Below, piece by piece: positions 4,993 to 40,985 of a stretch of 64,000 bases of DNA. The position numbers and the translations under genes are program-made. The first letter of the stretch is position 1; every line of letters starts with the position of its first letter. The notes beneath the pieces are model-generated. The model was not told the origin of the DNA. It did not search any database and saw only the letters and a list, made by a program, of their open reading frames with translations. This stretch comes from Microbacterium sp. Lineage in GTDB: Bacteria > Actinomycetota > Actinomycetes > Actinomycetales > Microbacteriaceae. The stretch is taken from NCBI RefSeq assembly GCF_035554235.1, contig NZ_DATMIO010000177.1:11632-75631 (forward strand), in the 5' to 3' direction.

Positions 4993-5025
4993 TCCGATCG
5001 CGTCGAGAGGCGCACCCGTACCACC

Positions 5026-5069
5026 GCGAAACCCGCGGCCACGCCTGACGGCGAGGCCGCGGGTTTCGC
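5026..5069 (+). terminator. Probable intrinsic terminator of the rpoA-rplQ operon
   Basis: GCGAAACCCGCGGCC (5026-5040) / GGCCGCGGGTTTCGC (5055-5069) stem with inner CGCC/GGCG stem. Confidence 0.7.
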
Positions 5070-5140
5070 CGTTCCCCCGCCGGCTCGGATTTCGCCGTTC
5101 CCCCTGACGCCTCGGGTTTCGCCGTTCCCCCGCCGGCCTC
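5061..5140. repeat. Tandem repeat, 3 x 26-27 bp
   Basis: GG(G/A)TTTCGCCGTTCCCCC... units at 5061, 5087, 5114; first unit is the 3' arm of the terminator. Confidence 0.9.
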
Positions 5141-5153
5141 GGGTCCTGGCCAG

Positions 5154-5252
5154 TGCGCATAACTCCTGCAATCCGCGATGCGCGGCCCTTGGCGCCCGCG
5201 GAACGGCGGCGGCCGGGGCGGGATCGGCCTGTGAATGCAGGAGTTGTGCGCG
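5154..5252. repeat. REPIN-like inverted-repeat doublet left of DUF559 gene
   Basis: TGCGCATAACTCCTGCA (5154-5170) and inverted TGCAGGAGTTGTGCGCG (5236-5252), 65-nt spacer. Confidence 0.85.
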
Positions 5253-5393
5253 CGAGTGTTCGCCGGCCCCCATATCTCGTGCCGCCGGCTCCTCCAGGTG
5301 ACCATCTCCTCCACAGATCGGGTGGCCCGGCGGAGGTTCACAGATATCGATGGTCGCGGTCTGCGGGTGTGAGCAACCTGTCACGGTCCGTCT

Positions 5394-6284
5394 ATGGGAT
5401 CAGCCGCAGCACTCGCCAAGAGCATCGATGAACGGGTCCTCACCCGAGCCGACCTTCTCGCGATGGGCATGCGGCCCAGGCAGATCACCACGGCGGTCCG
5501 GTCCGGGAGGCTCACGCGTCTCCGCCGCGATCGGTATGTCGCCGCGACCGTCGACGACGGATCCGACGTCGCGGTGAGGGTCGGGGGGAGATTGACCTGC
5601 GTCAGCGCGGTGGCGACTACGGGCGCGTTCGTGATGGAAGATTCTCGGACGCACGTGCACGTCGACCGTGCGATGTCGCGTCTGCGCTCTCCGCACGCGA
5701 ACGCCAGGGTGAAACGCTGGCTTCGGGGCCGCGACGATCGGAGCGTCCGCCTGCACTGGGGGCACCTCCGCGACCCGGCGGAAGCGCGGCACGTCGTGTC
5801 GTTGCGCGACGCCCTGATGACGCTGATCAGGTGTCAGCCGGCGCGAGCAGTGGTCGCGACCCTCGACAACCTTCTGTTCCTCGCCGTCATTACGATGGAC
5901 GAGTTGCGGGATGTCTTCGCCGCGCTCCCCGCGCGCTACGACGTGCTGCTGCGACTCGTGGACGGGCGCTGCGAGTCGGGACCCGAGTCTCTCCTACGCC
6001 TGACGCTCCGACAGATGGGGCTTCGATTCGAGGTGCAGGCGGAGATCGATGGTGTCGGCCGCGTGGACTTCCTGGTCGAGGGCTGCCTGATAATCGAGTG
6101 CGACAGCAAGGCCTTTCACGAAGGATGGGCGGCGCAGAAGCGCGACAGGCGGCGGGATCTCGCGGCGGCATCACGTGGGTTGATGACGCTGCGCCTCCTC
6201 GCAGAGGACATCATGTACCACCCTGGAGTGATCGCGCCTGCCATCCGTGAGCTGCTCGCCGCACACGTGCACTGCCGGGTCTAG
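5394..6284 (+). CDS. AbiEi-like N-terminal wHTH + DUF559/Vsr-like PD-(D/E)xK endonuclease domain protein
   Basis: N-term LTRADLLAMGM..ITTAVRSGRLTRLRRDRY; C-term ESGPESLLR..GRVDFLVEGCLIIECDSKAFH..RDRRRD..GLMTLR. Confidence 0.8.
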   Translation: MGSAAALAKSIDERVLTRADLLAMGMRPRQITTAVRSGRLTRLRRDRYVAATVDDGSDVAVRVGGRLTCVSAVATTGAFVMEDSRTHVHVDRAMSRLRSPHANARVKRWLRGRDDRSVRLHWGHLRDPAEARHVVSLRDALMTLIRCQPARAVVATLDNLLFLAVITMDELRDVFAALPARYDVLLRLVDGRCESGPESLLRLTLRQMGLRFEVQAEIDGVGRVDFLVEGCLIIECDSKAFHEGWAAQKRDRRRDLAAASRGLMTLRLLAEDIMYHPGVIAPAIRELLAAHVHCRV

Positions 6285-6323
6285 GTCGCTCGTTCGAGTG
6301 GCTGGCTCTCCGTGTTGACGAGA

Positions 6324-6423
6324 TGCGCACAACTCCTGCATTCCGCGCGGCGGCGCGGCGCGGGTCGGCACGTTTCCGCACATTGAGTGGTGGGCTGGCT
6401 CCGGTTTGCAGGAGTTATGCGCA
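6324..6423. repeat. REPIN-like inverted-repeat doublet right of DUF559 gene
   Basis: TGCGCACAACTCCTGCA (6324-6340) and inverted TGCAGGAGTTATGCGCA (6407-6423), 66-nt spacer. Confidence 0.85.
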
Positions 6424-6454
6424 CGGGAAATCGCGGTCTGGCTAGGCTGGGCCG

Positions 6455-7531
6455 GTGAGCGAGACCGAGCTGCCGCCCCTCGACGAGCGGATCACCGCAC
6501 CCGCGCGGCCGACCGTGCCCGAACACCCGGATGTGGCGGTGTGGAGGCCCGCGGCCGAGGCCGACATCGACGCCCTCATGGTGCTGGCGCGGGCCATGGA
6601 CCGCGCCGACCACCCGACCTGGGTGACGGCACGCGAAGAGGTCGCCGATCAGTTCGACACCCCCTACCTCGATCCCGCGACCGACTCGCTCGTGGGACTG
6701 GATGCCGACGGCAGGGCGGTCGCGACCGCCTGGGCGAGCCTCGCCCCCGGCCGCGAGACCCGGGTGCAGGCCTACGCCATGGGCGGCGTGCATCCCGAAC
6801 TGCGCGCGCGGGGGATCGGCCGGCAGGTTCTGCGCTGGTCGGCCGAGCGGTGCCTGCAGCTGATGGCGGCAACGCGCAGCACGCTGCCCGCCTGGCTCCT
6901 GGTGTATGCGGATGAACCCAACACGGCGGCGATCCGGCTCGCGGAGCGCCGGGGGATGAGGATCGAGCGCTATTTCGCCGGAATGGCGCGACCGCTGTCC
7001 GATCCGATTCCCGACATCGCCATCGCGGAGAACATGCGCGTCGTGGCATATGCGCCTGAGTTCGCTGATGCCGCCCGGTTCGCGCGGAACGATGCCTTTC
7101 GTGATCACTGGGGCAGTCAGCCGAGCGCACCCGAGCGCTGGCAGCAGTTCGTGGGCGGCGAGCTGTTCCGCGGCGATCTGTCGTTCGTCATCGTCGAGAA
7201 CGTGGATGCCGGTGCACCCGGTGCGACGGACGCGCTCGGCGATCCCGTGCGCGTCGTCGCGTTCGCACTGGGCTCCGTGAACGAGGAGGACTGGGCCGCC
7301 CAGGGATTCTCGAGCGTCTACATCGACCTGATCGGTGTGGTTCGCGACCGGCGCGGACAGCGTCTGGCTCCCGCCGTGATCGCGGCCCTGTTGCGGGCCG
7401 CGCGCGACGCCGGGCTCGAGCGGGCGATCCTCGACGTCGACACCGCGAGCCCGACAGGCGCCAACACGCTGTACGAGGGGATGGGGTTCTCCGCCGTCGA
7501 GCGATCCGTCGCCCTCGTCGAGGAGTTCTGA
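6455..7531 (+). CDS. Tandem-domain GNAT family N-acetyltransferase
   Basis: Two acetyl-CoA motifs: GGVHPELRARGIGRQVL and IGVVRDRRGQRLA; LYEGMGF; leaderless-type TAGGCT-N6-GTG start. Confidence 0.85.
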   Translation: MSETELPPLDERITAPARPTVPEHPDVAVWRPAAEADIDALMVLARAMDRADHPTWVTAREEVADQFDTPYLDPATDSLVGLDADGRAVATAWASLAPGRETRVQAYAMGGVHPELRARGIGRQVLRWSAERCLQLMAATRSTLPAWLLVYADEPNTAAIRLAERRGMRIERYFAGMARPLSDPIPDIAIAENMRVVAYAPEFADAARFARNDAFRDHWGSQPSAPERWQQFVGGELFRGDLSFVIVENVDAGAPGATDALGDPVRVVAFALGSVNEEDWAAQGFSSVYIDLIGVVRDRRGQRLAPAVIAALLRAARDAGLERAILDVDTASPTGANTLYEGMGFSAVERSVALVEEF

Positions 7532-39464: not shown

Positions 39465-40985
39465 ATGGCGGTCATCACGGCAACCGAGGACAGGATGCAA
39501 GTGCCCGAGGAGCCGCCGAGCGCTCTCGCCCCCCTTGAGGAGGCGACGACGACGTCCTACCGCGATCGCTGGGAGAAGGCGTACGCGCGTCTGCTCGTCG
39601 TGACAGACACGCTGGTCATCATCGCGTGCCTCCTGACCGTCACGATCGCAGGATCGCAGCCCTACACGCTCCCGTTCCTCCATGGGCGGGGAGAGGTCTC
39701 GGTGTGGCTCATCGTGGGGGCGCTGATCGCGACGCTCCTCGTGCTGCTCTCACTCAGCGGCAGCCGCAGCCCGCGGGTCGTCGGCGTGGGGAGCCAGGAG
39801 TACCGGGCCATCGTGCAGTCCAGCTTCCTGGCCTTCACGACGCTCGCGCTGCTCGCGTATGTCACGAGCCTGGCCGGGCTGCACTTCATCCTCGCCGCCG
39901 GGCTTCTCGCGACGATGCCGAGCCTGATCCTGTCGCGCTGGCTGTGCCGGCGCTGGCTCGTCACTCAGCGCCGGGCGGGGCGGATGTCGCACCGCGTCCT
40001 TCTCATCGGCGCCGAGGATTCCATCGCCGCCACGGCGCGCGACCTGAAGCGCACGCCGGCGGCCGGCCTGCTCGTGGTGGGCGCCTGCACGCCGAGCGGA
40101 CGCGTGGCCGACCACATCCCCGGCACCGACATCGCGATCTCGGGGTCGGTGACCAACGTCCTGGAGGCGCTGCAGCGCGTCGAGGCGGACACCGTGCTCA
40201 TCACGAGCGCCAACGAGCTGTCTGCCGAGACGGTCCGCTGGCTGAGCTGGCAGTTGGAGCCGGGGCGCCAGCACCTCATCGTCGCCCCCAGCCTGACCGA
40301 CATCGGCGGTCCGCGTCTGCACACCCGACCCGTGGCCGGCCTGCCCCTGGTGCACGTCGAGACCCCGCGCTACGGCGGCGGAAAGCTCGTCACGAAGCGA
40401 GCCTTCGACCTCGTCGCGTCGGGCGTGCTGATCGTGCTCCTGGCGCCGGTGCTGCTCATCTCCGCGGTCATGGTGAAGTTCACCAGTCCCGGCGGCGTCT
40501 TCTTCCGTCAGGACCGCGTGGGCCTGAGCGGGGACCACTTCGACATGCTGAAGTTCCGCTCGATGTACGTCGACGCGGAGGATCGGCTCGCGGAACTGCA
40601 GCACGAGGCGCGGGATCGCGGCAACGACGTCATGTTCAAGATGAAGGACGATCCGCGTGTCACCCCGGTGGGCAGGTTCCTGCGCCGCTTCAGCCTCGAC
40701 GAGCTTCCCCAGCTCTTCAACGTGCTGATGGGAAAGATGTCACTCGTCGGCCCTCGCCCGCCGCTCGATCGCGAGGTGCGCCAGTACTCGAAGTCGGTGC
40801 ACCGCCGCTTCCTGGTCAAGCCCGGCATCACGGGACTGTGGCAGGTGAGCGGCCGCTCCGACCTCGACTGGGACGAGACGGTGCGCCTGGATCTGTTCTA
40901 CGTCGAGAACTGGACGCTCACGGGCGACCTGATGATCCTGCTCAAGACCGTCAAGGCCGTGCTGCAGAGCGACGGCGCGTACTGA
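39465..40985 (+). CDS. Polyprenyl-phosphate glycosyl-1-phosphate (priming) transferase, WcaJ/GumD type
   Basis: KRAFDL, KFRSM, DDPRVT, SLDELPQLFNVL..MSLVGPRP, KPGITGLWQV; GGAGG RBS. Confidence 0.93.
   Translation: MAVITATEDRMQVPEEPPSALAPLEEATTTSYRDRWEKAYARLLVVTDTLVIIACLLTVTIAGSQPYTLPFLHGRGEVSVWLIVGALIATLLVLLSLSGSRSPRVVGVGSQEYRAIVQSSFLAFTTLALLAYVTSLAGLHFILAAGLLATMPSLILSRWLCRRWLVTQRRAGRMSHRVLLIGAEDSIAATARDLKRTPAAGLLVVGACTPSGRVADHIPGTDIAISGSVTNVLEALQRVEADTVLITSANELSAETVRWLSWQLEPGRQHLIVAPSLTDIGGPRLHTRPVAGLPLVHVETPRYGGGKLVTKRAFDLVASGVLIVLLAPVLLISAVMVKFTSPGGVFFRQDRVGLSGDHFDMLKFRSMYVDAEDRLAELQHEARDRGNDVMFKMKDDPRVTPVGRFLRRFSLDELPQLFNVLMGKMSLVGPRPPLDREVRQYSKSVHRRFLVKPGITGLWQVSGRSDLDWDETVRLDLFYVENWTLTGDLMILLKTVKAVLQSDGAY

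Follow-up and report, generated by a model that had tools for sequence, protein, structure and literature searches.

A Vsr/DUF559-type nuclease gene framed by matched inverted-repeat doublets downstream of rplQ in Microbacterium sp.

In a 64,000-nt stretch of Microbacterium sp. DNA (assembly GCF_035554235.1, contig NZ_DATMIO010000177.1, positions 11,632 to 75,631; hereafter the window), a gene for a Vsr/DUF559-type nuclease lies between two palindromic doublets at positions 5154-6423, each doublet being a pair of inverted arms around a spacer. We consider it probable that this segment is one copy of a family-wide system, in which the gene for a sequence-reading nuclease is framed by two cognate doublets that are also dispersed intergenically, and whose arms are read and cut by the nuclease and homogenised by host repair. 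Gene and doublets form a coupled system which is chromosomal, mostly vertically inherited and has population features like those of REPIN-RAYT, the combination of repetitive extragenic palindromic (REP) doublets with a REP-associated tyrosine transposase (Bertels & Rainey, PMC3116915; bioRxiv 10.1101/2021.07.10.451892). The genome carrying the window (G000) is a 2.88 Mb assembly of 282 contigs, and genus-wide searches covered 401 genomes with one genome per species.

The nuclease gene and its two doublets

The left doublet (99 nt, 5154-5252) consists of an arm at 5154-5170, a 65-nt spacer at 5171-5235 and an inverted arm at 5236-5252. The right doublet (100 nt, 6324-6423) is built in the same way from an arm at 6324-6340, a 66-nt spacer at 6341-6406 and an inverted arm at 6407-6423. 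The 17-mer TGCGCAYAACTCCTGCA was found at 5154 and 6324 on the forward strand and at 5236 (with C as the first base) and 6407 on the reverse strand, i.e. four matches in the window, whereas 0.00 were expected from 100 dinucleotide-preserving shuffles with up to two mismatches allowed. This bears out the original prediction, made from the letters of the window alone, of a 17-mer occurring four times as one inverted pair on each side of the gene. As it had also stated, the spacers begin with ATCCGCG and TTCCGCG and are dissimilar in the rest. The central GTTTCC of the right doublet (6372-6377) mirrors the central GGAAC of the left one (5200-5204). Between the left doublet and the start codon there is a 141-nt gap (5253-5393, plus strand), presumably the promoter and 5' leader of the nuclease gene, in which no match to the sigma-70 consensus was found. 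At the homologous loci, the upstream doublet mostly ended 100-190 nt before the aligned start.

The nuclease open reading frame (ORF; 5394-6284, plus strand) encodes 296 amino acids with an AbiEi-like winged helix-turn-helix (wHTH) head, a middle domain and a C-terminal Vsr/DUF559-type PD-(D/E)xK domain. Pfam matches were weak and covered residues 15-45 (AbiEi_4) and 204-286 (MTES_1575 and DUF559). DUF559 (PF04480) scored 21.3 bits, marginally above its cut-off of 20.6, while MTES_1575 (PF18741) stayed below (23.7 bits, cut-off 38.2); both annotations were found among the homologues. AbiEi_4 was also below its cut-off (22.1 bits, cut-off 25), and the PADLOC AbiEi matches were weak, with E-values of 0.002-0.008. 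By Foldseek, the N-terminal half resembled the AbiEi antitoxin 6Y8Q (E 4e-4). The AlphaFold (AF2) model was confident (predicted local distance difference test, pLDDT, 91.9), and its last ~96 residues superposed on the catalytic domain of I-Bth0305I (3R3P, template modelling (TM) score 0.83) and also matched the DUF559 protein 3HRL (TM 0.78) and Vsr (1VSR); the matches at TM 0.78-0.83 had root-mean-square deviations of 2.6-2.7 Å. When 34 homologues were aligned, G38, R42, R44, R45 and Y48 in the wHTH head and E198, D225, E235, D237, H242, D251, R254 and D255 in the nuclease domain were invariant. Residues 85-87 read H-V-H, of which the first His alone is invariant in homologues, and the fold is not HUH. 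The Y1/HUH transposase domain (PF01797) was absent from 10 doublet-bearing genomes in a search that detected its positive controls. No known transposase domain was found in the protein with Pfam or NCBIfam, and NCBIfam gave no model for it. The protein had been described beforehand as an AbiEi-like wHTH fused to a Vsr/DUF559 nuclease, in which no HUH motif was seen, and the Pfam matches, the fold and the absence of PF01797 from these 10 genomes agree with this. Since the flanking arms match and no HUH enzyme was present in those genomes, the description of the locus as a RAYT-like architecture without a RAYT stands.

The public gene call (P0001) is 191 amino acids long, starts from an internal GTG and omits the wHTH head; alignments with homologues begin at residue ~14 of the 296-aa ORF. 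Public names of the homologues vary and include DUF559, endonuclease-domain, AbiEi-family-antitoxin-domain and vsr. A profile search returned 979 clusters (50% identity) of the full-length type at E <= 1e-30. Homologues at E <= 1e-20 were present in 323 of the 401 genomes, usually in 1-5 copies. Among 72,556 plasmid records only three contained the family, and these came from a single Tsukamurella strain; phage records contained none. The window gene has rplQ and a double-GNAT gene as its neighbours and no AbiEii toxin gene next to it.

Matched arms in one genome and across the genus

Seven doublets of the window arm type are present in G000, the two in the window and five solo copies, with nearly identical arms and unrelated interiors. 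A tblastn search found two paralogues of the window gene (which is on contig C177) in this genome, on contigs C21 (50% identity) and C30 (27%). They are framed by their own arms, GCCGSATWCAGGCT and AACTTCGGAGAATGTC, respectively, and each of these arms has its own dispersed copies. In reversed-sequence controls the paralogue arm families gave 0-2 hits. For the C21 family, a degenerate scan allowing two mismatches gave 94 mostly spurious single arms, and only paired matches were kept. The three arm families of G000, each with dispersed copies, bear out the expectation that each DUF559 paralogue carries its own cognate flanking repeats. According to a rough gene model, most solo copies lie 6-40 nt from stop codons or in gaps between convergent genes.

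At C104:7855-7954, a solo doublet extends into the 3' end of the upstream gene, whose last codons and TAA stop are encoded by the left arm (GGGGCATAACTCCTGCA). In G021, the orthologue of that gene has a different end, with a plain terminator hairpin after it.

Across the genus, the pattern ACTCCTGCA-N40-80-TGCAGGAGT was found in 46 of the 401 genomes with 1-28 copies each, and 0 times in the reversed control; it was absent from 16 other genera of the order. In every CTCCTGCA-rich genome examined there was a homologue with such doublets on at least one side, often as tandem arrays of 2-4. Solo and gene-linked copies share a species-specific outer portion of the arm, namely GTCCCSA in G171 and G373, GCACA in G312, TGCGCAYA in G000 and CTGAAYA in G322.

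The lengths of 113 elements fell into four tight classes of 61.2, 71.9, 83.8 and 95.0 nt, with a slope of 11.3 nt, and occupied 11 of the 41 allowed lengths. In vivo DNA-looping periodicities of ~11 bp are known from the lac and ara literature. The interiors were barely more stable than shuffled or random DNA (folding z -0.44 vs -0.06), whereas whole elements fold well because of their arms. It had been proposed that the nuclease recognises or cleaves its flanking hairpins or cruciforms. Since the interiors are barely structured and the lengths change in steps of ~11.3 nt, a hairpin or cruciform substrate has little support, and two half-sites phased on duplex DNA fit better. A central GGAA/TTCC mini-palindrome was enriched (24% vs ~6%), mainly in the 84-nt class, to which both window copies belong; read relative to the gene, GGAA is found in the copy upstream of it and TTCC in the one downstream, in G000 as well as in G289.

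Across Microbacterium, 66 homologue loci were scanned for inverted repeats of 55-125 nt within 480-nt flanks. A doublet was present on both sides at 45 loci, 41 of these with matching arms, on one side only at 19 and on neither side at two, so that 64 of the 66 loci had a flanking doublet; the background was 0.19 such hairpins per flank. The arms of the upstream and downstream elements had a median identity of 0.93 within a locus compared with 0.57 between loci (p 1e-14), while interior identity was near random (0.56 vs 0.52). The largest group, 26 loci between trpS and a RimJ-like GNAT gene, always in one orientation, has arms that differ by species yet match from left to right, and this match was significant at these orthologous loci alone (p 1e-8). 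Such joint change of four arms where the locus is inherited vertically is difficult to account for if nothing reads them all. Orthologues had been expected to keep their flanking repeats, and they do so with arms changing in concert.

The arms vary widely by lineage and include CTCCTGCA, CTCAGGCAG, GTACCGATTGCAGGA, ATGCCGTAYTCAGGC, CACAACGTCGGCG, CTCCTGAA and CTCCGGAG, among others. A Plantibacter homologue, checked separately, has a doublet on each side with arms GCGCACAACTCCTTCGA. Arm types are clustered on the protein tree, with 27 changes compared with 44.7 after shuffling, and none of 200 shuffles gave a number as low. Doublets adjoining the gene are often tandem duplicates with a period of ~125-155 nt that are ~85-90% alike including their interiors, for example upstream of the G329 gene, at C21:6088-6294 and at G125:C4:203333-203548. 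These tandem neighbours are the only copies seen with shared interiors.

A different use of the doublets would be regulatory. In that case the protein would mainly be an AbiEi-type DNA-binding regulator with the arms as its operators, the upstream doublet would serve autoregulation, the dispersed copies would be other regulated or structural sites and the nuclease domain would have an unrelated role, e.g. in repair. AbiEi binds paired inverted repeats in its own promoter, and the N-terminal half of the protein resembles AbiEi; phased duplex binding would fit the ~11.3-nt length steps, and the gene is vertically inherited at fixed sites. We nevertheless regard a regulator as unlikely, since most loci have a doublet 3' of the gene as well, and the solo copies, up to 28 in number, come and go between species and mostly stand near stop codons or in convergent gaps, not in promoters. 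Moreover, the nuclease residues are invariant, and each paralogue would need a private regulon of 3'-end sites.

Several structural candidates for the doublets were tried and rejected. A long covarying hairpin was dropped, as the interiors by themselves hardly exceeded shuffled or random DNA in stability. Strand-specific wobble pairing in the arms gave opposite answers from the two window doublets. An integron attC-like site was rejected because the arms, read from the sequence, are fully complementary with no bulged (extrahelical) bases, each core has one mismatch to the attC consensus RYYYAAC...GTTRRRY, and no integrase was found among the adjoining genes checked. A structured RNA was rejected as well: Rfam gave no match at the doublets and only two chance-level miRNA matches, at the rplQ terminator.

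Presence, absence and relocation at chromosomal sites

The gene was found after rplQ at five loci (G000, G329, G289, G322 and G021), and in G289 it is inverted. The same site was cleanly empty in six relatives (G012, G018, G020, G023, G001 and G002), where the GNAT gene directly follows the rplQ terminator with no arm remnant. The comparison of empty and filled rplQ-GNAT sites called for by the original prediction supported it, with five species filled and six cleanly empty. An equivalent hairpin directly follows rplQ in the empty-site species, and TAGGCT followed by GTG comes next in most of those shown. Among 22 close relatives, G021 alone was filled at this site. When G329 (filled) was aligned with its neighbour G018 (empty), the two corresponded on the left as far as the terminator and on the right from the -10-like box onwards. 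The difference is one block of ~1.5 kb, in which the gene is preceded by two doublets and followed by one, with short extra flanks. Since the GNAT gene is also present at the rplQ site of empty species, it is not part of the unit.

In the protein tree, the rplQ-site proteins form one group, which together with the proteins of a third site is sister to one clade of trpS-site proteins; this implies at least one relocation. A mobile or repeat-propagating unit had been suggested beforehand. Whole units are indeed gained or lost between species, but the gene is mostly vertical at a few fixed sites and is not freely mobile.

Presence or absence of the unit as one block, the implied relocation and the superposition of the catalytic domain on the homing endonuclease I-Bth0305I would be consistent with a homing-type selfish gene, for which the doublet would be the cleavage target and repair of cut solo doublets would copy the gene unit into them. 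We consider this highly unlikely. At the loci examined, each arm family had one flanked gene and many uninterrupted solo doublets; the gene stands between two complete doublets and does not split one, and only a few fixed sites are occupied across hundreds of species.

The inversion of the gene relative to rplQ and GNAT in G289 could suggest an invertible cassette, in which the gene would undergo phase variation through programmed inversion at the inverted arms, and a published list of predicted inversion targets gives DUF559 proteins as enriched (PMC9881135). This seems very remote to us, as one of the five rplQ-site loci and none of the 26 trpS-site loci was inverted, the immediate neighbours checked included no recombinase gene, a single doublet already forms a complete inverted pair, and the dispersed solo copies would be left unexplained.

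Solo elements were followed by searching the flanks of five sites in 18 genomes and then reading the junctions; gene models near the solo copies were crude. The gap upstream of purD contained a CTCCTGCA element, with varying offset and length class, in G000, G312 and G021, and elements of other arm families in G322 and G372; it was short and empty in ten others, including the closest relative G006. The gap 3' of a DEAD-helicase gene was filled in G000, G006 and G322, with plain terminators elsewhere. The orthologous elements in G000 and G006 have the same interior length (54 nt) and only ~41% interior identity. From this pair (site A) it was considered that the interior might be a host terminator wrapped by added arms, but a separate terminator stands beside the element in G322 and the idea is not general.

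Two local observations were made in these gaps. In G372 (C1:1047320-1047790, L140), at least six degenerate CTCAG-type arm pairs, belonging to another arm family, have accumulated locally as an array in the purD upstream gap. In G009 (C3, ~40525-40910, L054), three tandem repeats of ~75 nt (GTTCGGGACCGGGCGGCTCCGTGTGCCAGACC...) follow the terminator in the DEAD-helicase 3' gap and are unrelated to the doublets.

In G021, the rplQ-site gene (L036, C1, ~204188-205000) has a frameshift right after IIECDSRA in the catalytic motif, and a near-identical intact protein (P0038) is present in another strain. The frameshift could be either a recent inactivation or a sequencing error. In G006 the arms are partly decayed, but its assembly lacks the whole rplQ region.

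Working model and known systems

Our working model for a coupled nuclease and its doublets builds on four points: the resemblance of the head to AbiEi, the invariance of the nuclease residues, arms that are conserved around drifting interiors, and the ~11.3-nt steps. Two protein molecules would read the two arms of one doublet on duplex DNA, in phase, and would contact each other across the 43-77-bp interior. Such contact would account for lengths conserved in increments of roughly one helical turn despite the drift of the interior sequence. The nuclease would then nick or cut at the arms, and host repair of the breaks may keep the arms alike by gene conversion and occasionally duplicate, delete or relocate doublets, or more rarely the whole unit. 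The host may tolerate the elements or use them as terminator-like spacers at 3' ends.

Several observations weigh against this reading. Binding and cutting of the arms by the protein, and any copying mechanism, are what we infer from sequence. A PD-(D/E)xK nuclease alone cannot carry out strand transfer, so that copying of any kind would have to depend on a putative step of host repair. Interiors are not shared among the dispersed copies of a genome, so that there is no sign of whole elements having recently been copied and pasted in a simple way; target-site duplications were seen neither at the seven G000 elements nor at the filled/empty junction. The CTCCTGCA arm type occurs in at least five places on the protein tree, in unrelated clades, indicating that arms and protein do not track one to one, and by eye no code linking wHTH residues to the bases of the arm type was visible. 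The rpoA-rplQ tree, on which filled and empty species are interleaved, is based on only ~760 nt and is weakly resolved. Finally, G021 has 17 doublets with intact arms despite its frameshifted gene.

The intact arms of G021 and a nuclease without strand-transfer chemistry would also suit a passenger gene. The doublets would then be MITE-like (miniature inverted-repeat transposable element) or terminator-like sequences spread by the host or by an unrecognised enzyme, and the DUF559 gene would merely be located among them or be carried as in a composite element. Solo copies do outnumber gene-linked ones, and permissive intergenic gaps collect elements of several families. We judge a passenger gene to be quite unlikely, since three paralogues in one genome each have a private arm family, the arms at the 26 trpS-site loci differ by species but match within a locus, solo copies follow the gene-linked variant of their own genome, and no HUH transposase was present in the 10 genomes searched.

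Coupling of nuclease and doublets, the reading we prefer, may extend further. More tentatively, we regard it as a serious possibility that AbiEi-headed DUF559 nucleases are partners of private doublet families, and that they represent a second, independently evolved, long-lived and vertically inherited enzyme-repeat partnership in bacteria, analogous to REPIN-RAYT, which would operate by site-specific binding and cutting of phased duplex half-sites and host repair, not by HUH transposition. To date, REPIN-RAYT has been the standard textbook case of a repeat family linked to an enzyme that is single-copy and inherited vertically. The Microbacterium system resembles it in that the gene is framed by its own repeat type with one cognate population per gene lineage, the repeats are extragenic, dispersed inverted doublets of ~100 nt with a less conserved spacer, and the gene occupies the same intergenic space across species, is mostly vertical and is rare on plasmids. 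Unlike in REPIN-RAYT, the enzyme combines an AbiEi-like wHTH with a Vsr-type PD-(D/E)xK domain and is not a HUH/Tyr transposase; the arms are 17-25 bp long with a quantised 43-77-bp spacing, the interiors are unrelated and copy numbers are low (1-28). As the enzyme is unrelated to RAYT, the system is not a member of REPIN-RAYT.

Other known systems share parts of the arrangement. The N-terminal wHTH and the next domain resemble AbiEi (type IV toxin-antitoxin, 6Y8Q), with weak profile matches, and the arms likewise form an inverted-repeat pair, but there is no adjacent AbiEii toxin gene, the C-terminus is a nuclease and the repeats are tens of bp apart and dispersed genome-wide. With Vsr-like (EDxHD-type) nucleases, i.e. 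E. coli Vsr, NGO0050 (3HRL) and I-Bth0305I (3R3P), the protein shares the catalytic fold and the conserved acidic and His residues. Unlike these, it lies outside any intron, intein or host gene, shows no sign of a T:G-repair context, and has a large sequence-reading head and cognate repeats around its gene. In contrast to a homing endonuclease gene, the window gene is intergenic, from the rplQ terminator to the GNAT promoter, and stands between two complete doublets. MITEs and their parent insertion sequences (IS) are similar in being short and non-coding with terminal inverted repeats that match a protein-coding copy, and in varying in insertion between species; here, however, there is no target-site duplication and no known transposase class, interiors are unshared and two complete doublets surround the gene.

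In the literature considered here, we found no published description of a DUF559 nuclease with cognate doublets and no paper containing both DUF559 and AbiEi; DUF559 appears only as a table row among the predicted inversion targets (PMC9881135). If such a second enzyme-repeat partnership exists, part of the very large DUF559 family would gain a concrete, testable function, actinobacterial intergenic palindromes would gain a partner protein, and the enzyme-repeat lifestyle would have evolved more than once, on an unrelated nuclease. Among bacterial protein families for which no function is known, DUF559 ranks with the larger ones. In addition, the dozens of arm variants at one orthologous locus would form a natural set of diverged protein-site pairs for the co-evolution of DNA-reading specificity.

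The insertion site in the window is bounded on the left by the terminator of rplQ. The rplQ gene (ribosomal protein L17, 4399-4992, plus strand; Pfam Ribosomal_L17, E 1e-37, and the ORF list) is the upstream neighbour and lies outside the unit. It is followed on the same strand at 5023-5072 by a terminator-type hairpin, an inverted repeat with 23-nt arms and a 4-nt loop, and the earlier placement of the unit right after the rplQ terminator proved correct. Directly before the left doublet, at 5053-5137, there are three tandem copies (period 26-27 nt) of GGGTTTCGCCGTTCCCCC(GCCGGC), which repeat the 3' half and tail of this terminator and could be the trace of repair or slippage that occurred repeatedly at the insertion site. 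The right edge is formed by a TAGGCT -10-like box followed by the GTG start of the GNAT gene (6443-6457, plus strand). This double-GNAT gene, the downstream neighbour, starts at 6455. A GNAT gene is the immediate neighbour at three insertion sites, namely those of rplQ (6455-7531), trpS (L013, 2640-3074) and the C30 paralogue (L007, 1643-2185), which could be a target preference or coincidence.

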